Shown in pieces: positions 1,414-51,507 of a DNA stretch of 64,000 nucleotides (positions within the stretch are counted from its first letter, which is position 1; each line of letters starts with the position of its first letter). The notes beneath the pieces are model-generated. The model worked only from the letters and a program-made list of their open reading frames with translations, was not told where the DNA came from and searched no databases. A program made the position numbers and the translations under genes. Source of the stretch: Nanobdellati archaeon (GTDB lineage Archaea > EX4484-52 > WAPT01); contig WAPT01000024.1 of the NCBI GenBank assembly GCA_015520605.1, positions 12,645 to 76,644 on the forward strand. Direction: 5' to 3'.

Positions 1414-1707
1414 TTAGTGTCCCCCATTACTCCAGTTACTCCAATCACACCATTCACTCCAATCGTGCCAGTTTATCCAGTTGTTCCAGTGGTTGTTCAA
1501 CCAGTTGTTGTACTCATTTTGGAGATCCTTCCAGCTCTGCTCGTTTGTAACGCAGTTATGGTGAGTGGATTGGGTGTGTGCAAGTTTTGAAAGGAGAGGG
1601 AGGGAACACACCGCAGTAAACAGGAGAAACATGTTCAGCGCCCCTTCACAGTCATCCTTGGATACCAGCATGGATCTCATTTTTCTAAACCGATCTCTCC
1701 AGCTCAT
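1414..1707 (-). CDS. Trp/Asn-rich repeat peptide; candidate RiPP precursor or secreted peptide. It has an N-terminal polar region, a hydrophobic signal-like segment, and a C-terminal (W-x-x)n core.
   Basis: The ORF-track protein ends ...NNWLNNHWNNWINWHDWSEWCDWSNWSNGGH. Trp recurs every third residue seven times in a row, mirrored in the DNA as CCA every 9 nt on the plus strand. Arg codons are AGA/CGG, matching genome usage. An AGGTG Shine-Dalgarno-like motif lies 8 nt upstream of ATG 1707. The gene sits 54 nt upstream of, and co-directional with, two radical SAM genes. The hydrophobic stretch MFLLFTAVCSLPLLSKLAHT resembles a Sec signal or TM segment. Confidence 0.45.
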   Translation of the reverse strand: MSWRDRFRKMRSMLVSKDDCEGALNMFLLFTAVCSLPLLSKLAHTQSTHHNCVTNEQSWKDLQNEYNNWLNNHWNNWINWHDWSEWCDWSNWSNGGH

Positions 1708-2056
1708 TCTCTACACCTTCATAATCTTCAGACTGTTTTGATATGTCCGGTATCACCCCCTTTATCGCCAGCTCCAGCAGGAGTTTTCTTACATCTCCAA
1801 ACCTGCGTAGATTCATCTCTTCCATCTCCGCCTGCAGCAGTTCAGCAAAGAACGCATCAATGAGTTCCTCTGTGTTCTCCCCTTCAGGCGGCTTTAACTC
1901 CACAGTGATCTCCTCGATACCGTCTCCGAGCACACGAACTCTGCATGTCTCAAGCATTCTGTATGCAGCTCTCATAACAGTGCTTTTTGAATAAAGTGTC
2001 GAAGGGAGCTTTATTTTAACAATACCGTCGGCAACTTCAACAGTTTTTTTATCCAT
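1685..2056 (-). CDS. Hypothetical 123-aa acidic protein in the pilin/rSAM array, with unknown function. The track ORF extends to a GTG at 2176.
   Basis: ORF-track frame 1685..2176 (GTG start). The first in-frame ATG is at 2056 and gives MDKKTVEVADGIVKIKLPSTLYSKSTVMRAAYRM... Its stop overlaps the start of the W-rich peptide gene, which is an operon-like arrangement. Confidence 0.45.
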   Translation of the reverse strand: MDKKTVEVADGIVKIKLPSTLYSKSTVMRAAYRMLETCRVRVLGDGIEEITVELKPPEGENTEELIDAFFAELLQAEMEEMNLRRFGDVRKLLLELAIKGVIPDISKQSEDYEGVENELERSV

Positions 2057-2115
2057 ATTCCGATTATGGAATGGGGAATTTTTATTTTTAATTGATGGAA
2101 AGGGATAACCCAGTA

Positions 2116-2316
2116 TCATTTCGGCAACAGACCGGCCACATACTTCCCAATACCCACGATCTTGCCAAGCCACCACCAGTTGGATTGAATGGCACTGATG
2201 ATGGGGGATGCCACAGTTTCAAGCAGGATGTATGCGAGGGCGATACAGAGTATAAACACGACAATATAAATTATCAGCATTATCTGCCCGCCGACCAGAG
2301 CCTTTCTTCTGACCAT
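2116..2316 (-). CDS. Small hydrophobic membrane protein (66 aa, two predicted TM segments).
   Basis: ORF-track protein MVRRKALVGGQIMLIIYIVVFILCIALAYILLETVASPIISAIQSNWWWLGKIVGIGKY. It has an ATG start and lies 12 nt downstream of the preceding small ORF on the same strand. Confidence 0.35.
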   Translation of the reverse strand: MVRRKALVGGQIMLIIYIVVFILCIALAYILLETVASPIISAIQSNWWWLGKIVGIGKYVAGLLPK

Positions 2317-7305: not shown

Positions 7306-8229
7306 ATGAAAAACTACGAAAAAATTATGAAAAACATTGAACGGCTCGGTGAGAGATATTGCAGAAGATATCTTGACCCGTGGAACAAAGAAAGGTTGCA
7401 GACCAATTGGTGGGAAGCGCTAAAATTCCTTCTTAGCCATTCGTTTATGAGAGGAAGACGAGACAAATTGTCTAACGAATATTATTATTTTACCATTGAA
7501 ACTTTGAAAGATTATTTTTCCATCACTGATGGAGATCTGAACACATCTTATGAGAAGCTTAAAGAAAAGAAAAAATATTTTGACAAAGAATGTATTTTGA
7601 AGTTCAAGAAGAATAAAAATATTGGAAGAAAAAATAGCATTAAAGATCCAGATTTCAGGAAGGAAGTAGTAGGAAAAAATCCAATTGTAAAGCTTCTAAT
7701 TACTCCAAAAGAAGTCAAAGTAAAATGGGACAACAAAACTTACAATAAGGTAACTTGCTTAGGTAATGATGAAGATATAATGATGGTTCTTGATGTTTTG
7801 AAGCTCATTTCAGATGATGATAAGAAGAATATTTACAATTATTTAAGAGATGCGATTGTCAATTTCGGGGTTAAAGCAGCGTATGAAGAATTGATAAACA
7901 TAAGAGCTGTTTCAGATAAAATCTCCACTTTCATCATCAGAGATATTGTTTTAATGAATCCACAAATAAAAATGACATATGAGGACGCCAAATGGGCATT
8001 TCCTATGGATACGTGGGTAATTAAAATTGCCCATAAGTTAGGTTGTAATAGTGAAGATATCGAAAAAATCAAAAACCATCTAATTGATAGGTGTAGGGAA
8101 TTGGGGGTAGATCCGTTAAAGTTTGTAGCAGGGCTATGGTTCTTGGGTTACCATTCGCTTGATATATTGCTAGAAAATTGTATAGGAGAGATCAAAATTG
8201 GGGACATTACTTCGGATAGCATCGGATAA
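7306..8229 (+). CDS. Divergent HhH-GPD-superfamily (DNA glycosylase-like) protein, encoded in an AT-rich island.
   Basis: The ORF-track protein contains ...AVSDKISTFIIRDIVL...FPMDTWVIKIAHKLG. This resembles the helix-hairpin-helix plus catalytic-Asp motif (xPVDTHVxRV) of EndoIII/Ogg/AGOG-type glycosylases. The gene and its flanks (about 6974-8416) are markedly more AT-rich than the rest of the window. Confidence 0.45.
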   Translation: MKNYEKIMKNIERLGERYCRRYLDPWNKERLQTNWWEALKFLLSHSFMRGRRDKLSNEYYYFTIETLKDYFSITDGDLNTSYEKLKEKKKYFDKECILKFKKNKNIGRKNSIKDPDFRKEVVGKNPIVKLLITPKEVKVKWDNKTYNKVTCLGNDEDIMMVLDVLKLISDDDKKNIYNYLRDAIVNFGVKAAYEELINIRAVSDKISTFIIRDIVLMNPQIKMTYEDAKWAFPMDTWVIKIAHKLGCNSEDIEKIKNHLIDRCRELGVDPLKFVAGLWFLGYHSLDILLENCIGEIKIGDITSDSIG

Positions 8230-28057: not shown

Positions 28058-28876
28058 ATGGCTGGGGCAAGAACATCTTCTTCATCTTTTGACATCAAGA
28101 TTCTTGAAAGTGATAATGGGAGGATAAGATTTGAGGTTAGCGGGATAAATCCGGCGATAGCTAACGCTATAAGGAGGGCAACGTATTCGGAAGTGTACGT
28201 TATGGCTATAGAGTATGTCGATATTGTCAAGAACACATCAGCCCTTTACAACGAGTTGCTTGCCCATAGAATAGGGCTCATACCTCTGACTTTTGACCCG
28301 CTTCGCTATACCCCCAGGGAGAAGTGTGACTGCAAAGGAGAAGGATGTATGAAGTGTCAGGTCAAACTCGTGTTGAAGAAGAAGGGCCCGTGTGTTGTTT
28401 ACGCTAGAGATCTTGAATCCACAAATCCGGATGTTAGGCCTGTCTATGGTGGTGAGATAATCGTCAAGCTGCTTGACGGTCAGGAAATAGAGCTGGAAGC
28501 GGTTGCAATACTCGATAAGGCTGATAGACACGCAAGATGGCAGAGTGCGGTTGTGGGTTATCAGTATTACCCTGTCATTGAGAGCGAGGAGCTTGATGGC
28601 AATGCTAATGCATCAAAGCTCTGCCCAAAGGGGGCTCTGGAGATAAAGGATGGCAAAGCTGTAGTGAAAGATCCTTACCTCTGCGACCTCTGCGGACTAT
28701 GTGAGGAGAGATCTAATGGTAAAATAAAGGTTGTAGGTGACCCCTCAAGAATCATATTCAACATAGAAAGTGTTTGTGGTCTCACCCCTGCACAGATAGT
28801 GTTGAGTGCTATCAACGGGATAAGGGAAAGACTGCAGGAGTTTGAAAATCAATTTAAAGCTCAGCTTAAAAAGTAA
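28058..28876 (+). CDS. rpoD: DNA-directed RNA polymerase subunit D (Rpo3) with a 4Fe-4S cluster domain.
   Basis: Conserved position after S11 and the cysteine cluster CDLCGLCEE. Confidence 0.9.
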   Translation: MAGARTSSSSFDIKILESDNGRIRFEVSGINPAIANAIRRATYSEVYVMAIEYVDIVKNTSALYNELLAHRIGLIPLTFDPLRYTPREKCDCKGEGCMKCQVKLVLKKKGPCVVYARDLESTNPDVRPVYGGEIIVKLLDGQEIELEAVAILDKADRHARWQSAVVGYQYYPVIESEELDGNANASKLCPKGALEIKDGKAVVKDPYLCDLCGLCEERSNGKIKVVGDPSRIIFNIESVCGLTPAQIVLSAINGIRERLQEFENQFKAQLKK

Positions 28877-28889
28877 GGCTGTGCTCTGT

Positions 28890-29030
28890 GCAGGGGTGGC
28901 CGAGAGGTCAAAGGCGCCGGACTTAAGAGGCCTGTCATCCTGCTAAGAAATCCGGTGGGCGCAGGCCCGTCGTGGGTTCGAAGCACTCCTGCACGAGGCA
29001 GGAGTGTCGAGATTCCCACCCCCTGCACCA
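28890..29030 (+). tRNA. tRNA-Leu (anticodon TAA) with two putative introns: ~22 nt in the anticodon loop and ~31 nt in the T-loop.
   Basis: Acceptor GCAGGGG/CCCCTGC, discriminator A, encoded CCA. Anticodon stem CCGGA...TCCGG has loop CTTAAG interrupted by AGGCCTGTCATCCTGCTAAGAA. The long variable arm marks it as type II. The T-stem GTGGG/CCCAC encloses the loop TTCGA plus an inserted hairpin (CACTCCTGC-ACGAG-GCAGGAGTG) plus TT. Confidence 0.7.
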
Positions 29031-29061: not shown

Positions 29062-29427
29062 ATGAAGCCAACAGGTCCGACAAATCCTGTACTCAGAAGC
29101 CTGATAAGAACGCTAATAAAGGCCAGCCGTGAGAATAAAGCACCCATTTGGAGGGCGGTTGCTGAGGAGCTGGAAAGACCGAGGAGAGTCAAGAAGCCCG
29201 TTAATGTGGGCAAGCTTGAGAGATACTGCCGGGAGGGAGAGGTTGTTGTTGTACCTGGTAAGCTCTTGGGAGGGGGTGTACTTACAAAAAAAATCACAGT
29301 AGCATCTTTCCAGGTATCTCCCCTTGCCATAAAGAAGCTGGAGAAAGCGGGAGGGAGGTGGATGAGTATTGAGGGGCTTATAAAGGAAAATCCCACCGGC
29401 AGCAACGTGAGGGTAATGAAAGGGTGA
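29062..29427 (+). CDS. rpl18e: Ribosomal protein eL18.
   Basis: L18e N-terminal signature (PTNPVLRSLIR) and its position before L13. Confidence 0.9.
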   Translation: MKPTGPTNPVLRSLIRTLIKASRENKAPIWRAVAEELERPRRVKKPVNVGKLERYCREGEVVVVPGKLLGGGVLTKKITVASFQVSPLAIKKLEKAGGRWMSIEGLIKENPTGSNVRVMKG

Positions 29428-36699: not shown

Positions 36700-37806
36700 T
36701 TACCACTCTCGTTCTCGTTCAGAATGTTCTCGAAGATGCCCGCCGTCCAAAGAGTCGCACCATATTCTGCACGCGCCTTCAATACTTACCATGCACGGAC
36801 CCACGGGGTTGGACGGACTGCAAACCCTGCCGAAGAGAGGGCAGTCCTCCGGCGTTATGTTTGCTAGTAGAACGTCCCCACACCTGCAGAGTTTTTTAGC
36901 AGGATCCTCACGAAATTCGAACTTTTGAAAAATTTTCTCAAAAACCTTTTCAGCATCTCTATCCTCCCATTTCTTTTTGATCGTAGGTTTGCTGTTTTTT
37001 ATTTTTCCGAGTCCTCTCCACTCACAATCACAGCTTCCGAACACCATTCTTATGAGTTTCTTTGCCTCCACATTACCGTTTTCCCTCACAACACGTCCGT
37101 ACTGGTTGATCACATCCGTTTCTCCCTCTACCAAAAGATCAAGGACTATTTTTACCGACTCCAGCACATCGAGCGCTTCAAACCCGGAGACAACCATCGG
37201 GAGGGGAAAGCGACGGAGAATGCTTCTGTAAGGTCTGATGCCAGTTATGGCTGAAACGTGTCCCGGGCATATGAGAGCATCGACTTTCCTTTTTGTTGAA
37301 GATAGAAGCGCAGGTATCGCAGGTATGAAAAATCGATGAGCATTGAAAACATAAAAGTTGGAGGGCGCTTCCAGGATTGCTATTGCGGTTGAAGGCAGGG
37401 TGGTTTCAAACCCAACGGCTATGTGAACGATATCCTTGCTCTTATTTTTTTCGGCAATTTTCACCGCATCGAAAATGCTGTAGACGATTTTTATTTTTGA
37501 GCCTCCTGCCGTTGCAAGAGATATGCCGTGGTATTTCAGCTGCGAGACATCCCCAAAACAGGTTACTATCCCATCAAAATTCTCAATAAAATACAGAAAT
37601 CTTGCGATCTCTTCATCATTTATCACACATACAGGGCAGCCCGGACCCGGCACAAGCTTGATGCATGAAGGGACAATTTGCCTTATTCCGTATTTGGATA
37701 TTGTATTTTCGTGTGTTCCGCAAAGGGAAAGGATCGTGATGTTTTTCCCAACTGTGGATGCAAGGTTCCTGATCTCTTCGAGCAGTTTTTTTGCATCATT
37801 CCTCAT
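36700..37806 (-). CDS. hypD: Hydrogenase maturation factor HypD.
   Basis: GPGCPVCV and CPVC-type motifs, and a C-terminal CxxH... cluster. Confidence 0.93.
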   Translation of the reverse strand: MRNDAKKLLEEIRNLASTVGKNITILSLCGTHENTISKYGIRQIVPSCIKLVPGPGCPVCVINDEEIARFLYFIENFDGIVTCFGDVSQLKYHGISLATAGGSKIKIVYSIFDAVKIAEKNKSKDIVHIAVGFETTLPSTAIAILEAPSNFYVFNAHRFFIPAIPALLSSTKRKVDALICPGHVSAITGIRPYRSILRRFPLPMVVSGFEALDVLESVKIVLDLLVEGETDVINQYGRVVRENGNVEAKKLIRMVFGSCDCEWRGLGKIKNSKPTIKKKWEDRDAEKVFEKIFQKFEFREDPAKKLCRCGDVLLANITPEDCPLFGRVCSPSNPVGPCMVSIEGACRIWCDSLDGGHLREHSEREREW

Positions 37807-37975
37807 GAACGTCCCTCACCTTTTCTATGGCAAAACCGGCATGCACCACCACTTTGTCCCCCACCTTGACGTCTGGTACGAGATCTACACGCACAAATCT
37901 TCTTGCCCCTCCAAAATTCACGAGAGCTTCCTTTTCCTTGATTTTTTCAACAATTCCCACGACACCAATACACAT
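37796..37975 (-). CDS. hypC: Hydrogenase maturation factor HypC (59 aa, absent from the ORF track).
   Basis: Hand translation: MCIGVVGIVEKIKEKEALVNFGGARRFVRVDLVPDVKVGDKVVVHAGFAIEKVRDVHEE. This is the canonical MC-start HypC. It overlaps the hypD start by 11 nt. Confidence 0.85.
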   Translation of the reverse strand: MCIGVVGIVEKIKEKEALVNFGGARRFVRVDLVPDVKVGDKVVVHAGFAIEKVRDVHEE

Positions 37976-38029
37976 AATCAGATATTTTTTCAGAAAATAC
38001 TAATTAACTTTTTGCAAATAATCTGTTAG

Positions 38030-40381
38030 ATGGATGCATGGAGAATTATCATAAAAGGAACAGTTCAGGGTGTTGGCTTTAGACCGACTGTTGCCAGAGT
38101 GGCACGAAAACTGAAAGCGAGAGGGTATGTCAGAAACCTTGGAGGAGGGGAGGTTGAAATAGTGACCGATTTTCACCCTGAGAAATTTATCGAGAAACTA
38201 TACAATAACCTTCCGAGACTTGCGAGGATTGAGGAAGTAAGGGCGGAAAAGATCAGCACATATTCCTTGCCGGATCCTTTCGCAATTCTTAAGAGCACAT
38301 CTTTTTCCTCAGAGGTCGAAGAAACGATAAGACTGCCTCCTCCCGATGCGGCGATATGTGAGATTTGCCTTGCGGAGGTATTTTCGGAGGACAACAGAAG
38401 ATACCTGTATGCTTTCACTTCCTGTACTGCCTGCGGACCGAGGTTTACAGCGTTTCTTGGACTTCCCTTCGACAGGGAGAATACAACTTTTGGCTCTTTC
38501 CCGCTCTGTGCAGATTGCACCAGAGAATACGAGGATGAAATTAACAGAAGGTACCATGCACAGACCACGTGCTGTCCTGTGTGTGGGCCAACATATTCCT
38601 TGGTATCATCCGGTGGCAAAACTATCGCAGAAGGTCTTGAAGCCATAAGGATGGCCGCCAGAATGGTGGATGATGGCGAGATTCTAGCTGTGAAGGGATG
38701 GGGAGGTTATCACCTTGTCTGCGACGCGGAAAAAGATGGTAGTGTCAGCAGATTGAGGGAGAAGTTGAAGAGGCTCCAACAACCATTCGCAATAATGGCG
38801 AGGGATATGAATGCGGTTAAGAGGATCTGCATCCTTAATGAGCGGGAAGCGGAGGAACTTTCCAGTCCAGCAAGGCCGATCGTGATCCTGAGAAAGAAGG
38901 AACCATCCATTATGAAGGAGGTGGCTCCCATGCTTCACACTCTTGGTATGATGCTCCCTTATTCGGCGCTACATCACATTTTGTTTTCACATCTCAATAC
39001 AGACTTCATTGTGGTTACATCTGCAAACCTTCCCGGAGAACCAATGATGATCGACGAAAAGATAATCAAAAAAATCAAAGTGGATGCCTATCTCATCCAC
39101 AATTTGAGGATAGCGAACAGGTGCGATGACTCCGTTCTCAGGGTGGTTGATGAAAGAAGGGTTTTTGTGAGGAGATCTAGAGGTTTCGTACCATTTTCCC
39201 TCGAGCTTGGAAAAAAGACTAACGCTCTCTGCCTTGGGGCGGAACTTTTCAATTCAGTATGTTTCGTCAAAAACGGCAGAGCGTATCTCAGTCAGTATCT
39301 CGGAGACACTTCAAATTACCTCACCTACAAAGAGCATTTCATCCCCACCATCCAGAAATGGAGAAAATGGCTCTCCCTCGATAAGTGTGATGCAATTGTG
39401 TGTGACCTCCATCCCTCTTACACCACAACCTTCTTTGCGGAAAACGTTGCGGAGAGTCTTGATATCCCTCTCTACAGACTTCAGCATCACTTTGCACATG
39501 CGATGGGAGTGATGTTCGAGCATAACCTTGAGAGAGCTGTTGCTATATGCTGTGATGGCACTGGATACGGTTTGGATGGCGGTGTGTGGGGTGGGGAAGT
39601 CCTTTATATTGATTTTGAAAAACATGAGTTTGCGCGTGTCGGCCGCCTTGAAAATTTCCATCTTGTCGGAGGAGATAGTGCAACTCTAAATCCGAGAAGG
39701 ATAGGAGCATCCCTGCTTTTCTTAGCAGGGATGGAAAAAGAGGCGGCAGCACTTCTTGAGGAAAAGGAAAGGGAACTCGTCATGGCAGCCATCCAGAACA
39801 AAATAAATGTGGTGGAGTGTTCCTCAGCAGGCAGAGTTTTTGATGGTGTGGCATCAATCCTTAACATTTACAATAAGAGAACTTATGAGGGCGAGGGGGC
39901 AATGAAACTTGAGACCATGGCATCTCTGGCGGAGGGGAAATGCAAGGAAGTTGAGAGCTTAAAACCAAAAATCGCAACCACACAGGAAGCTACAAGATAC
40001 AGGAACCCTTACTTAATGGAAGGATGTGAAGGAAATCCGCGAGCAACACAATTTCCGATAAAGGTACTTAAAATTTCGAAATTAATAAAAGAAGCTTTTG
40101 AAAAATTGAAAGAAGGATGGGAGATGGAAAGGATAGCCTTCGAAACGTTTTCTTATGTAGGGCGGGGACTTGCCACAATAGCCGTTGAGACAGCAAAGAG
40201 ACGTAACTGTAAAATAATTCTCGCTGGAGGATGTATGGTAAATCCCATCTTTGTGGAAAGCATTATGAATGTTACGAGAACTGGTGGGGTTGAAACAGCA
40301 CTCCCTCAAGAAGTGCCCATTGGAGATAACGGGATAAGTATGGGACAGGCGTATTTGCTCAAATTCGTTGAGACGAGGTGA
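38030..40381 (+). CDS. hypF: Carbamoyltransferase HypF.
   Basis: Acylphosphatase domain (VQGVGFRP), two Zn-finger CxxC pairs, and YrdC and Kae1-like domains. Confidence 0.93.
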   Translation: MDAWRIIIKGTVQGVGFRPTVARVARKLKARGYVRNLGGGEVEIVTDFHPEKFIEKLYNNLPRLARIEEVRAEKISTYSLPDPFAILKSTSFSSEVEETIRLPPPDAAICEICLAEVFSEDNRRYLYAFTSCTACGPRFTAFLGLPFDRENTTFGSFPLCADCTREYEDEINRRYHAQTTCCPVCGPTYSLVSSGGKTIAEGLEAIRMAARMVDDGEILAVKGWGGYHLVCDAEKDGSVSRLREKLKRLQQPFAIMARDMNAVKRICILNEREAEELSSPARPIVILRKKEPSIMKEVAPMLHTLGMMLPYSALHHILFSHLNTDFIVVTSANLPGEPMMIDEKIIKKIKVDAYLIHNLRIANRCDDSVLRVVDERRVFVRRSRGFVPFSLELGKKTNALCLGAELFNSVCFVKNGRAYLSQYLGDTSNYLTYKEHFIPTIQKWRKWLSLDKCDAIVCDLHPSYTTTFFAENVAESLDIPLYRLQHHFAHAMGVMFEHNLERAVAICCDGTGYGLDGGVWGGEVLYIDFEKHEFARVGRLENFHLVGGDSATLNPRRIGASLLFLAGMEKEAAALLEEKERELVMAAIQNKINVVECSSAGRVFDGVASILNIYNKRTYEGEGAMKLETMASLAEGKCKEVESLKPKIATTQEATRYRNPYLMEGCEGNPRATQFPIKVLKISKLIKEAFEKLKEGWEMERIAFETFSYVGRGLATIAVETAKRRNCKIILAGGCMVNPIFVESIMNVTRTGGVETALPQEVPIGDNGISMGQAYLLKFVETR

Positions 40382-41415
40382 GCGTGATGAGCTGGCAGGA
40401 GAGGGTAGGTGACGTGGGAGATGGTGGGAGAAGAATGATGGAATTTCTTGAAAAGTACATTTTTCCGAAAATTAATGTAGAGAGCAGAGAGGATGCGGGA
40501 ATAGTGAACGAAGATTTCATCATAACAACCGATAGTTACACTATTAAGCCCATAATTTTTCCCGGCGGCAGTATAGGGAAGCTTGCCATCTGCGGGTCAG
40601 CAAATGATGTAGCCGTGATGGGCGCAAAACCTACATACTTTCTTCTATCTTTAATAGCAGACGAGAACCTTGAGATGAACAAGTTTTTGCATGTTGTTGA
40701 AGATATCTCGAAATATCTGAGAGAGATTGATGGCAGGATGCTTGGCGGAGATCTCAAAACACTTAAGGGAGATGGAGAGGAAATTTATGTAAATACCACA
40801 TGCATAGGAACGCGAAACAGATGGCTTGAATTAAATCTCGAAGTGGTGAGAAATTATCGCAACTATCCACACTCATGGATAAGGAATTGTGGCGCTGGAG
40901 AGGACGAGGTGGTGATAATAACTGGAAACATCGCGGAGCACGCCACAGCAATTTTGCTTGCAAGGGAGGAGCTTGGTTTCCAGCTGGATGTATCCTCGGA
41001 TTGCAAACATCTATGGTTTCCAATAAGAAAAGCGATGGAGGAGGGTGGCATAACGGCAATGAAAGATGCTACTCGCGGTGGTATTGCGTCTGCGCTCAAC
41101 GAGATAGCGGAGCAAAGCGGTGTGGGTATGGTAATTGAGGAAAACAAAATACCAATAAGGGAAGAGGTAAGGAGTTTCTGCGAGGTGCTTGGACTTGATC
41201 CCTATGCAATGGCAAACGAGGGTGTGAGTGTGATGACCGTTGTGCGGGAAATGGCTGAGGATGTGCTTGAAGCTCTTCACAAAGCGGGAGAGAAAAATGC
41301 GAGGATTGTGGGCTACACAACCGCAGAACATAGAGAGGTTATTCTGAGAACCGAGCTTGGAAGCGAGAGAATTCTTCATATGCCTTACGGAAGCACAGTG
41401 CCCAGAATATGTTGA
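40378..41415 (+). CDS. hypE: Hydrogenase maturation factor HypE.
   Basis: PurM-like fold with the conserved C-terminal ...PRIC. Confidence 0.9.
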   Translation: MSVMSWQERVGDVGDGGRRMMEFLEKYIFPKINVESREDAGIVNEDFIITTDSYTIKPIIFPGGSIGKLAICGSANDVAVMGAKPTYFLLSLIADENLEMNKFLHVVEDISKYLREIDGRMLGGDLKTLKGDGEEIYVNTTCIGTRNRWLELNLEVVRNYRNYPHSWIRNCGAGEDEVVIITGNIAEHATAILLAREELGFQLDVSSDCKHLWFPIRKAMEEGGITAMKDATRGGIASALNEIAEQSGVGMVIEENKIPIREEVRSFCEVLGLDPYAMANEGVSVMTVVREMAEDVLEALHKAGEKNARIVGYTTAEHREVILRTELGSERILHMPYGSTVPRIC

Positions 41416-46128: not shown

Positions 46129-46719
46129 TTGAAGTCCAAGACCAAGATAGTTAGGGTATTTCAGCTTCTAGTTCTCGTCTTTTTTGTAGTTCAGGGAATG
46201 TACATAGCGCACTCGATAATCCAACATCACCACTATCTTCAGTCACTCCCAGATACCACACAGGAAATGTATTTAAATCAGGAAATTCTGAAGTGGGCTC
46301 GTCAGCAGAACATATCGGTCATTTTCGATGAGAACTACAAACCATTTATGAAAGTGAAGAACAGCAAAGAACTGATAACGAATTTTGAAGAAATTAAAGA
46401 AATAAAGACAGCGCTGATAATCTCAGTAATACCTAGAGAGCGGATTAATGATGCTTTCAAACCAGATCTCTTGATCAAATACTATCTAATATCTCCCGCC
46501 GGTATACGTTACTATGAGGACTATTACATAGCGCCGACAGGATACACGATAGTCAAGTACAACCAAAACGGTGTCGTTATTCTGAAAAAGGACGTCACAC
46601 TAGGGTGGCTCAGGACAATCACTCATGGAAGAAATGTTCTTGTGGGGATAGTGATGCTATTCATCGATGTGACCCTTCTGAGAGTAGCATTTCCGAAGGG
46701 AGAGAACACAGATGTCTAG
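46129..46719 (+). CDS. Membrane-anchored hypothetical protein (196 aa).
   Basis: N-terminal TM segment, with a GGAGG-type Shine-Dalgarno upstream. Confidence 0.55.
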   Translation: MKSKTKIVRVFQLLVLVFFVVQGMYIAHSIIQHHHYLQSLPDTTQEMYLNQEILKWARQQNISVIFDENYKPFMKVKNSKELITNFEEIKEIKTALIISVIPRERINDAFKPDLLIKYYLISPAGIRYYEDYYIAPTGYTIVKYNQNGVVILKKDVTLGWLRTITHGRNVLVGIVMLFIDVTLLRVAFPKGENTDV

Positions 46720-49546: not shown

Positions 49547-50248
49547 TTATCTCCCGAACCTTCTCTCCCTCCCGAAAAAATCTTTCAGCGCTTTTCCAAA
49601 CTCATCCCTGCTGAACTCGGGCCAGAGAGCATCGCTGAAGTAAAGCTCGGAATATGCGGCCTGCCACAAAAGAAAGCCAGACAACCTTTTCTCACCGCCG
49701 GTCCTTATTATGAGGTCGGGATCCGGCATACCATTCGTATAGAGATATTTTTGGAAAAGTCCTTCATCTATGCTTCGTCTATCGATCTTCCCACCCTTCA
49801 AGTCATTCAGCAGTTTTTTGACACCATCAACTATTTCGGCTCGCCCTCCATAGGCTATCGCAAAATTGACAACATAATCATCGTAATCTTTCGTTGATTC
49901 CACAGCCCTTTTTATGGCATCTTTAACATTAGATGGAAGCAGGTGAATCCTGCCTATCACGTTTATTCTAACACGGTTTTCATGAATTTCCTTATCCCTT
50001 GGAATTGCGTCGAATTCCTTTTTGAATATCCTCATCAGCATTTCAAGCTCTCTTTTTGGCCTCTTTGTGAAATTTTCAAGCGATAAAGAATAGAGAGTCA
50101 CATATTTGACATCAAGATCTCTGCACCACCTAAGCACTTCCCTGACCTTTTTGGCACCCCACTCGTGTCCCTTCCACGGCTTCTGCATTAAACGTCTGGC
50201 AAATCTCCTGTTCCCGTCCATGACGAAGGCTATGTGCTGAATCTCCAT
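49547..50248 (-). CDS. uppS: Undecaprenyl/cis-prenyl diphosphate synthase (UppS family).
   Basis: Motifs HIAFVMDGNRRFA...; RTGGEKRLSGFLLWQ. Confidence 0.92.
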   Translation of the reverse strand: MEIQHIAFVMDGNRRFARRLMQKPWKGHEWGAKKVREVLRWCRDLDVKYVTLYSLSLENFTKRPKRELEMLMRIFKKEFDAIPRDKEIHENRVRINVIGRIHLLPSNVKDAIKRAVESTKDYDDYVVNFAIAYGGRAEIVDGVKKLLNDLKGGKIDRRSIDEGLFQKYLYTNGMPDPDLIIRTGGEKRLSGFLLWQAAYSELYFSDALWPEFSRDEFGKALKDFFGRERRFGR

Positions 50249-50286
50249 ACTTCCCTTTTAAAGAAGGAAAAATTTATATGTGGCGT

Positions 50287-51507
50287 TTATCTCAAGATGG
50301 TGGCGAGCTTTATCAGCTTCGGTCTCCTCAGAAGGATTTTGGCAAGCTTTCTCAGGTTCTTGCCTCCGGCAAAATCAATTATATCCTGAACTGTCAGCTC
50401 ATCAGCCAGGAAATTGAGGTCGTCATCGCTCATCCTTTCTATTACCTGCCTGAGTTTCTCAATCCTCCTGAGCTTTTCTCCCCTTTCCTTCCACCACAGC
50501 TCGTTAAACTTCGCTAAAGCATCATGACTGACATCCTCCCTATTCAGACACTCACAAATTACTTCAGCGGCTATCTCTCCGGCTCTCGTACCCTCATCCA
50601 TGCCTCCGCCGTGTATGGGATTTACTGTATGGGCAGCATCACCAATAACAACAAATCCGTCCCTCACCATGTCCTTGAGCAACCCTCCAACAGGTATGCC
50701 GCCGGCGTTCTCCTCTATTACGCTTGCATCAGCAAAAATCTCTGGATGGTTCTCTATCCATGAGTCAAGGTACTCCTTTGCTTTTCTCTTGACTCCAGCC
50801 CCTCCCCCTATTCCTATGCCCACGTTCGCAACATGGTCTCCCTTGGGGAATATCCAGATGTAGCCTCTTGGAGCAATCTCGTTGCCGAGATAGAAGTAAA
50901 GCTTGTTTGCGTCTTTCAGCTTTAAGTTAGCCATCTCGTACTGGTAGCCGCTATCCACATTGATAAGCTTATTTGTGTTGTCTATGCCGGCTTTTCTTGC
51001 CATTTTCCCCTCTATACCCTCGGCTGAAACGACCACCCTGGCCTTTACCTCAAAGACATCTTCCCCGTACTTGATAACAACACCGCTTATTGCTCCATTA
51101 TCCTTAAGCAGATCTACTACCTCTATCTTGGTGAATACCTTTGCTCCGGCTTTGGCGGCATCATAAGCTAAGAATTTATCGAAAACCTTCCTCTCAACCA
51201 CACAACCTTGGGGTGAACCGTAATCCATCACGAATTCCTTGCCGTTTGGAGCGTAAAGGTAAAAGCCATCAATGTACTGTGCAACAAACCTTTCATTACC
51301 GTTATAACCCATTCTCTGCAGAGCCTTGACACCTATGCCCTCCGCACATCTCTTGGGTGAGCCTATCTCAGCCCTCTTCTCAAACACCGCAACGCTGAGA
51401 CCTCTATCAGCTATCAGCTTAGCACACCTGCTCCCAGCTGGACCTGCACCTATGACAACAACATCGTAAGCGTTTTTTAAACCAACAGGCCTAGGGATTT
51501 CGATCAC
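50287..51507 (-). CDS. Geranylgeranyl reductase (digeranylgeranylglycerophospholipid reductase).
   Basis: FAD-binding motif VVVIGAGPAGS and GGR family features. Confidence 0.88.
   Translation of the reverse strand: MIEIPRPVGLKNAYDVVVIGAGPAGSRCAKLIADRGLSVAVFEKRAEIGSPKRCAEGIGVKALQRMGYNGNERFVAQYIDGFYLYAPNGKEFVMDYGSPQGCVVERKVFDKFLAYDAAKAGAKVFTKIEVVDLLKDNGAISGVVIKYGEDVFEVKARVVVSAEGIEGKMARKAGIDNTNKLINVDSGYQYEMANLKLKDANKLYFYLGNEIAPRGYIWIFPKGDHVANVGIGIGGGAGVKRKAKEYLDSWIENHPEIFADASVIEENAGGIPVGGLLKDMVRDGFVVIGDAAHTVNPIHGGGMDEGTRAGEIAAEVICECLNREDVSHDALAKFNELWWKERGEKLRRIEKLRQVIERMSDDDLNFLADELTVQDIIDFAGGKNLRKLAKILLRRPKLIKLATILR

Follow-up and report, generated by a model that had tools for sequence, protein, structure and literature searches.

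The DNA that lies between the genes for RNA polymerase subunit D and ribosomal protein L18e in the window (the whole 64,000-nucleotide stretch that was analysed) raises the question of whether the two segments interrupting a tRNA-Leu(UAA) sequence there are introns of a working gene, or the marks of a gene in decay, of an enlarged T-loop that stays in the RNA, or of a faulty assembly. Positions 28890-29030 of the forward strand are confirmed as a tRNA-Leu(UAA) gene with two introns. Comparison of its sequence with related genes makes it highly probable that this is a functional gene of a DPANN archaeon from a hydrothermal vent, and that both introns are spliced by EndA and RtcB.

In regard to the detection of the gene, ARAGORN called five uninterrupted tRNAs (Ser, Glu, Ala, Pro and Gly) in the native window. 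The native tRNA-Leu(UAA) was not called in a search of the whole window, nor when introns in the anticodon loop were allowed, the latter search failing because the T-loop insert is present. The Rfam tRNA model, applied at a permissive threshold, gave a mis-registered match at 28890-28993, scoring 25.3 bits where the gathering score is 29. Once the 31 nt in the T-loop were deleted, ARAGORN reported a tRNA-Leu(taa) interrupted at position 37 by an intron of 22 nt, and deletion of both segments gave an 88-nt tRNA-Leu, including CCA, with a long variable arm and A73. Deletion of the anticodon insert alone gave no ARAGORN tRNA. The tRNA-Leu(UAA) therefore requires two excisions, as an initial annotation made from the letters of the sequence had claimed, and the blind scan and six orthologues described below bear the claim out as well. 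A better fold with a single intron, which the same annotation had named as a finding that would speak against it, was not found, as no single excision restores an uninterrupted tRNA.

The search for non-canonical introns that had been recommended there was carried out as a blind scan of both strands of the whole window, in which each bulge-helix-bulge (BHB) candidate (a 4-bp helix with an outer helix of at least 2 bp, an inner helix of at least 3 bp and an offset of at most 1 nt) was excised, and the product passed to ARAGORN with anticodon introns allowed. The 4477 candidates led to one new tRNA, the tRNA-Leu(taa) at 28890-29030 with both of its introns, given as i(37,22) and the excision 28983-29013, and the boundaries are therefore fixed independently of manual reading. 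The scan revealed no further hidden tRNA of the bulge-helix-bulge type on either strand of the window, and when other hidden structured RNAs were sought through the GC-rich islands of the window, these corresponded to known tRNAs and coding regions only. The native precursor folds with -72.6 kcal/mol (z = -3.9), and 0 of 200 shuffles were equally stable.

Table 1. Features of the tRNA-Leu(UAA) locus, in positions of the window
Feature	Position	Strand	Details
rpoD (RNA polymerase subunit D)	28058-28876	+	Upstream neighbour and synteny anchor; Pfam RNA_pol_L, RNA_pol_A_bac; stop 13 nt before the tRNA
TTTAAA, TATA-box-like	28853-28858	+	Within the final rpoD codons; 32-37 nt before the tRNA 5' end
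tRNA-Leu(UAA) gene with 2 introns	28890-29030	+	141 nt including encoded CCA (29028-29030); ARAGORN after excision, and blind scan
Exon 1, tRNA positions 1-37	28890-28927	+	Acceptor 5' strand GCAGGGG, D arm, anticodon stem 5' strand CCGGA, CUUAAG (anticodon UAA)
Bulge-helix-bulge, intron 1	28922-28950	+	Motif scan: central helix 4/4, outer helix 7 bp, inner helix 1 bp in strict register
Intron 1, canonical 37/38 site	28928-28949	+	22 nt, AGGCCUGUCAUCCUGCUAAGAA; ARAGORN i(37,22); L008 and L024 lack exactly this segment
Exon 2, positions 38-59	28950-28982	+	A38, anticodon stem 3' strand, variable arm GGGC/GCCC, T stem 5' strand GUGGG, U54-A59
Bulge-helix-bulge, intron 2	28977-29014	+	Motif scan: central helix 4/4, outer helix 5 bp; same geometry in the centroid fold
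Intron 2, T-loop site 59/60	28983-29013	+	31 nt, GCACUCCUGCACGAGGCAGGAGUGUCGAGAU; boundaries from the blind scan; same site in 6/6 orthologues
Exon 3	29014-29030	+	U60, T stem 3' strand CCCAC, acceptor 3' strand CCCCUGC, A73, CCA
Discriminator A73	29027	+	From the mature cloverleaf
rpl18e (ribosomal protein L18e)	29062-29427	+	Downstream neighbour; starts 31 nt past CCA

With both introns excised, the mature tRNA-Leu measures 85 nt plus CCA, and has the anticodon loop CUUAAGA and the T-loop UUCGAAU. It shows the features of a class II tRNA-Leu, namely the anticodon UAA, a long variable arm whose stem (GGGC/GCCC) has 4 bp, and A73, and its gene belongs to the multi-intron tRNA genes, with interruptions at 37/38 and at 59/60, the second site being non-canonical. 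The ARAGORN cloverleaf agrees with the initial annotation in that the acceptor, D, anticodon, variable and T stems are intact and CCA is encoded. The insert of about 22 nt that had been placed at or next to 37/38 sits exactly at 37/38. The insert of about 31 nt in the T-loop does hold 31 nt, but its borders had to be moved: the proposed split TTCGA|ATT was corrected because it would leave an 8-nt loop, while UUCGAA|31 nt|U (59/60) yields the standard 7-nt UUCGAAU.

At the first site, C32-A35 (CUUA, 28922-28925) pairs with UAAG (28944-28947) in a central helix flanked by a 5' bulge A36-G37-A (28926-28928) and a 3' bulge A-A-A38 (28948-28950), the latter adjoining the anticodon stem, which serves as the outer helix. 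Both this central helix and the AAA bulge appear in the minimum-energy fold. In that fold the inner helix is weak: AGG pairs with CCU and a 2x2 internal loop remains, which makes the 5' splice site relaxed. Across the orthologues, 90% of the cells of the central helix pair. The position of the first two anticodon bases within the 4-bp central helix is the textbook arrangement (PMC4090602). Intron 1 resembles the canonical 37/38 intron of the hBHBh' type (Marck and Grosjean 2003, via PMC4090602) in its site, in the two anticodon nucleotides held in the central helix and in the 3-nt bulge at the 3' splice site, and differs from it in having an inner helix that is nearly absent in register and a 5' site that lies in a small internal loop.

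At the second site, the central helix joins U54-G57 (UUCG, 28977-28980) and CGAG (29008-29011), one of the pairs being G-U, and pairs in 92.9% of the cells across seven sequences. The 5' bulge is A58-A59-G (28981-28983), the 3' bulge A-U-U60 (29012-29014) adjoins the T stem, and the T stem itself (28972-28976 with 29015-29019) forms the outer helix. A 9-bp GC-rich hairpin (28984-28992 with 28998-29006, loop 28993-28997) makes up the inner helix, and an extra U at 29007, replaced by C in the closest relative, stands between the hairpin and the central helix, opposite the 5' bulge; by pairing with G28983, this U may shrink the 5' bulge to 2 nt. The hairpin had been noticed in the initial annotation and taken for the BHB substrate. 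It is present, but the splice motif consists of the 4-bp UUCG/CGAG helix with its bulges, to which the hairpin contributes only the inner helix, offset by one U. Both introns share a 4-bp central helix and a strict 3-nt 3' bulge (AAA and AUU) beside the exon stem; measured by the strict 3-4-3 hBHBh' geometry, the 3' bulges conform, while both 5' bulges in the window are slightly relaxed.

The region downstream of rpoD was compared between the window and six further lineages, that is, in seven genes (Table 2). A metagenome scan with the RpoD alignment found no match, and a scan with a DNA pattern of the 5' exon yielded one contig, L018. All six orthologues are syntenic, with the order rpoD-tRNA-rpl18e, and in all seven genes excision of the 37/38 and 59/60 introns restores the cloverleaf, as is required of an archaeal BHB intron, ARAGORN reporting tRNA-Leu(taa) with the T-loop UUCGAAU in each.

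Table 2. The seven tRNA-Leu(UAA) genes compared
Gene	RpoD identity	37/38 intron	59/60 intron	Exon differences
Window	reference	22 nt	31 nt	reference
L007	96%	22 nt	31 nt	0/85
L008	80%	none	32 nt	0/85
L018 (tRNA 5' region same as in L023)	56%	39 nt	31 nt	4/85
L019	55%	20 nt	25 nt	2/85
L021	54%	20 nt	22 nt	2/85
L024	48%	none	106 nt	more diverged, 86-nt mature tRNA

In 7/7 genes the T-loop is interrupted at 59/60 by an intron of 22-106 nt, its sequences being unrelated and its pairing kept. Apart from the 4 nt that pair with UUCG, which read CGAG, CGGG, UGGA, AGGA, CGAA, CGAG and AGGA in the seven genes, the T-loop introns have no alignable sequence. Between the window and L007, intron 2 shows an A-U pair turned into G-U within the hairpin, a basal G-U turned into G-C, and CGAG turned into CGGG, and the pairing with UUCG is kept. 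An inner helix in strict register is found at the T-loop site in L008, L018, L019 and L021, with 3/4 pairs in the central helix of L018. When 20000 shuffles were examined for each gene, the geometry of the T-loop intron was matched by 3 in the window, 2 in L007, 0 in L008, 3 in L018, 85 in L019 and 15 in L021; the 106-nt intron of L024 gave no informative result under this simple geometry criterion. Over the seven sequences, 97.7% of the cells pair and four pairs show compensatory changes, while at most 58% of the cells pair if the 3' partner is slid by 1-3 columns. Two other readings of the T-loop site were rejected on comparison. The register UCGA/UCGA is perfect in the window, but it breaks in L007 (CCGG) and puts a U-U mismatch beside the T stem, and splicing at 58/59 would produce mature loops that differ among the orthologues, while 59/60 gives UUCGAAU in 7/7.

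These comparisons bear on the idea that the T-loop insert is retained in the mature RNA, either as an enlarged T-loop hairpin or as a signal for protein binding or processing in the ribosomal-protein operon. Such a role could be suggested by the stable 9-bp GC-rich hairpin and by the position of the gene between protein-coding genes without a terminator-like T-run. However, the hairpin is not conserved in length or sequence (the inner helix has 3-10 bp in five of the six orthologues, and 1 bp in the branched 106-nt intron of L024), and the part that is conserved, the U54-G57 pairing with the 3-nt bulge at the exon border, is the geometry of a splice site. In addition, a helix that locks U54-G57 would block the universal T-loop fold established for tRNA structure, and an archaeal endonuclease removes a comparable 59/60 insert in vitro (PMC3239211). 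We consider retention of the insert very unlikely, and removal of the 59/60 segment as an intron remains the preferred reading.

The 37/38 intron occurs in 5/7 genes (4/6 orthologues) and is cleanly absent from L008 and L024, both of which read CTTAAGATCC at the place it would interrupt. In L008, the reading is CTTAAGATCCGG, with exons identical to those of the window and exactly the 22 nt of intron 1 missing, so this gene can be regarded as a natural "spliced" control for intron 1. The sequence of exon 1 is likewise identical in the alignment of the window, L007 and L008. This distribution implies two or more losses of the 37/38 intron, or repeated gains.

A tRNA pseudogene in decay, which acquired two insertions and gives no functional tRNA, could also escape the standard tRNA finders, as this locus does, and could have 5' splice sites that are not strict motifs; another copy of tRNA-Leu(UAA) could sit outside the window examined. 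Nevertheless, the exons have remained invariant or nearly so while RpoD diverged to 54% identity, and the stems show compensatory changes. The inserts were wholly replaced in sequence and yet kept their splice-site pairing, and the conserved operon slot is held in every relative examined. Decay is thus very unlikely, and the locus is best understood as a functional gene whose two introns would be spliced out.

The 3' end of the gene varies among the orthologues. CCA is encoded after A73 in 4/7 genes (the window, L007, L008 and L018) and is absent from L019, from L021 (TGA) and from L024 (TCA). An encoded CCA is accordingly restricted to a single sub-clade, and a CCA-adding enzyme is presumably still required in the lineage. 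In L024 (2331-2775; contig JBUDSH010000013.1), the 106-nt T-loop intron folds into a branched structure with -34 kcal/mol, its length being sufficient for a small RNA, and about 240 nt more of non-coding DNA lie between the tRNA and rpl18e. The introns of the window were also considered as hosts of a box C/D guide RNA, and this was rejected, 22 and 31 nt being too short and box motifs being absent.

Comparison with more distant relatives suggests that interruption of this tRNA extends beyond the clade of the window. In L009 and L010, which are Aenigmatarchaeota-like (RpoD identity 42-44%), a tRNA-Leu gene is also found just downstream of rpoD, with an uninterrupted T-loop. Both have an intron in the D-loop with a strict bulge-helix-bulge, at the same site (CAAG|UCA...CUUG|AxU) and with a length of 17 and 22 nt; a further intron interrupts L009 at 37/38 (54 nt) and L010 within the anticodon stem (37 nt). 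For L011, which holds an insert of about 90 nt near the anticodon, the motif scanner gave no clean introns. The disruptions in L009 and L010 therefore place interruptions of the same syntenic tRNA at different sites in different DPANN lineages. From these genes we conclude that disruption of the syntenic tRNA-Leu(UAA) is habitual in this part of DPANN, and that the 59/60 intron is the mark of one clade.

Some of the longer anticodon inserts carry motifs of their own. The 39-nt anticodon intron of L018 (1040-1085, minus strand; JGI contig Ga0256834_1017853) contains GUGAUGA, which is box C-like, and also a repeat of CCUUAAG resembling the anticodon loop. The inserts of L009 and L011 likewise repeat GACTTAAG/CCTTAAG. 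Nested or duplicated introns may have left the repeated CCUUAAG and the GUGAUGA behind, or these may form a kink-turn element.

In regard to the origin of the window, the closest differing genome record by RpoD (96% identical) is labelled Nanobdellati archaeon, and Nanobdellati is a DPANN kingdom. The closest named phylum by RpoD is Aenigmatarchaeota, at about 42-45% identity. The G+C content is 44-46% in the window and 66-73% in its tRNAs, a contrast that would be consistent with a thermophilic host. Deep-sea vent metagenomes assembled separately (ENA, NCBI, Logan) provide six contigs in which RpoD is identical. On these grounds, the host appears to be an uncultured hydrothermal-vent archaeon of DPANN (Nanobdellati), and not a euryarchaeon. 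The euryarchaeal frame in which the initial annotation had weighed the two introns is accordingly abandoned, and the feature fits a lineage with documented non-canonical and multiple tRNA introns (PMC3239211, PMC5829648), in which it is no anomaly.

The same contigs bear on the possibility of an assembly or binning artefact, such as a chimeric join inside the tRNA gene, which has to be considered for a window taken from a metagenome-assembled genome. The tRNA region, like RpoD, is identical in all six contigs, obtained in separate assemblies and sequencing runs, and the relative with 96% RpoD identity, from another assembly, has the same structure with few substitutions. Identity in six separate assemblies therefore speaks against an artefact, the probability of which we regard as negligible, and a genuine two-intron gene remains the reading to be explained.

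The gene lies in a cluster with the order tRNA-Ser, S13-S4-S11-RpoD-[tRNA-Leu]-L18e-L13-S9-RpoN. On inspection of the sequence, no T-run was seen between tRNA-Leu and rpl18e. The TTTAAA element is found at -31 to -40 in 6/7 genes (the window, L007, L008, L018, L019 and L021), though the ends of rpoD differ, and the conserved motif there, (G)AAAATTTAAA(A), resembles an archaeal BRE/TATA promoter. TTTAAA may be a candidate promoter of the tRNA, and possibly also of the downstream rpl18e-rpl13-rps9-rpoN. A transcript starting from it with a short leader may run on into rpl18e, because no T-run follows the tRNA.

According to the mechanism that we propose, the gene would be transcribed as a precursor of 141 nt or more, either from the TATA-like element at the end of rpoD or within an operon transcript. 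In this precursor, the 3' part of intron 1 would provide the partner of CUUA (32-35), and that of intron 2 the partner of UUCG (54-57), and each pairing would create a 4-bp helix flanked by bulges, the motif recognized by EndA. EndA would then cut after the second nucleotide of each bulge and release introns of 22 and 31 nt. The archaeal RNA ligase that joins tRNA exons is RtcB, which would ligate the three exons into the 85-nt tRNA plus CCA with the loops CUUAAGA and UUCGAAU. What the sequences themselves show is the structure of the gene and of its motifs, which are non-random and conserved in the orthologues; cleavage and ligation, the enzymes involved and which excision comes first are what we infer from established archaeal tRNA splicing (PMC4090602, PMC3239211). 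The relaxed 5' splice sites are predicted to need an endonuclease of broadened specificity. No EndA-like ORF was found in the window, either by tblastn with an approximate M. jannaschii EndA query, which returned noise only, or by Pfam scans of 30 ORFs.

Introns at 59/60, a site listed among the archaeal tRNA intron positions (PMC4090602), and genes with two or three introns were described in Thermoproteales and Korarchaeum and, within DPANN, in ARMAN-2 and Nanoarchaeota (PMC4090602, PMC4033280, PMC3239211, PMC5829648). The closest known case is that of ARMAN-2 (Candidatus Micrarchaeum acidiphilum), a DPANN archaeon in which the pre-tRNA-Cys(GCA) has a 13-nt intron at 59/60 and the pre-tRNA-Pro(GGG) has two T-loop introns, at 53/54 and 59/60, and whose EndA was shown in vitro to cut a relaxed intron at 59/60 (PMC3239211). 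The gene of the window shares with it the superphylum-level group, the 59/60 site, a splice motif that is possibly relaxed and more than one intron per gene. It differs in being a tRNA-Leu(UAA) interrupted at 37/38 and 59/60 in a thermophilic vent lineage, and its 59/60 intron is longer, with a long inner hairpin. The EndA of ARMAN-2 is a three-unit epsilon2 enzyme. Kaneta et al. reported that several DPANN lineages have EndA variants bearing an extra loop (L3), with markedly more disrupted tRNA genes (PMC5829648).

Similarities also exist with Thermoproteales and Korarchaeum (Sugahara et al. 2007/2008, via PMC4090602, PMC4033280), where multiple BHB introns at canonical and non-canonical sites, including 59/60, reach up to three per tRNA gene (PMC4090602, PMC4033280). 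There too, the genes are missed by standard tRNA finders, and they were recovered by SPLITS-type searches. Unlike the DPANN archaeon of the window, these organisms belong to TACK and have (alpha-beta)2 or related endonucleases. Furthermore, many introns of Thermoproteales are recent and similar across different tRNAs, which points to transposition, whereas the T-loop intron studied here appears orthologous, old and diverged in sequence. In a test for repeats and mobile elements, no second copy of either intron was found within the window at up to 3 mismatches.

Disrupted tRNA genes in DPANN, including those with 59/60 introns, are already known from ARMAN-2, and the present gene would not surprise a specialist. 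The current understanding of archaeal tRNA splicing is left unchanged by a two-intron tRNA-Leu(UAA). What is mildly new is the thermophilic vent DPANN clade as the host lineage and, as far as can be judged from the orthologues, a T-loop intron that would be old and orthologous, with one site kept while the sequence was entirely replaced. On the practical side, standard pipelines miss the gene, so genomes of the clade seem to be without tRNA-Leu(UAA), which distorts completeness estimates and inferences on codon usage. For studies of intron evolution, seven comparable genes are now available in which a non-canonical T-loop intron is old and fixed in position, in contrast to the transposition-like introns of Thermoproteales. 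The vent DPANN clade is also predicted to carry a splicing endonuclease that tolerates relaxed BHB sites.

A more far-reaching proposal, which we put forward as a speculation that is rather unlikely to hold, is that the 59/60 intron is ancient and orthologous in a thermophilic DPANN clade, and that its position stayed fixed although RpoD identity fell to 48% and the intron sequence was wholly replaced, in which case the interruption as such would seem to be under selection. If true, selection could act to break up the T-arm and 3' end that are targeted by integrating elements; alternatively, the benefit could lie in an intron-dependent modification or a quality-control step. On this reading, should the EndA of the clade turn out to be a simple alpha4-type enzyme, such enzymes would handle relaxed T-loop sites in vivo.

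The two introns of the window both contain TCCTGC (28939-28944 and 28988-28993), with CA before each copy (CATCCTGC and CACTCCTGC), and pairing is conceivable between the copy in intron 1 and the 3' arm of the hairpin in intron 2. The shared motif is probably a coincidence, as the chance expectation of a shared 6-mer is about 1 in 10.

Elsewhere in the window, the regions 36700-41415 and 49547-51507 encode HypD, a HypE-like protein and, between these two, an ORF of 783 aa, and also a geranylgeranyl reductase and a prenyltransferase of the undecaprenyl-diphosphate-synthase family. Genes for hydrogenase maturation and lipid-related functions exceed what is usually expected of a reduced DPANN genome. 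Three ORFs have no Pfam match at E <= 0.001, namely 1688-2176 (minus strand, 163 aa), 7306-8226 (plus strand, 307 aa) and 46129-46716 (plus strand, 196 aa). All three have a protein-like composition, and the 163-aa ORF shows a faint match to FKBP26_C (E = 0.045).
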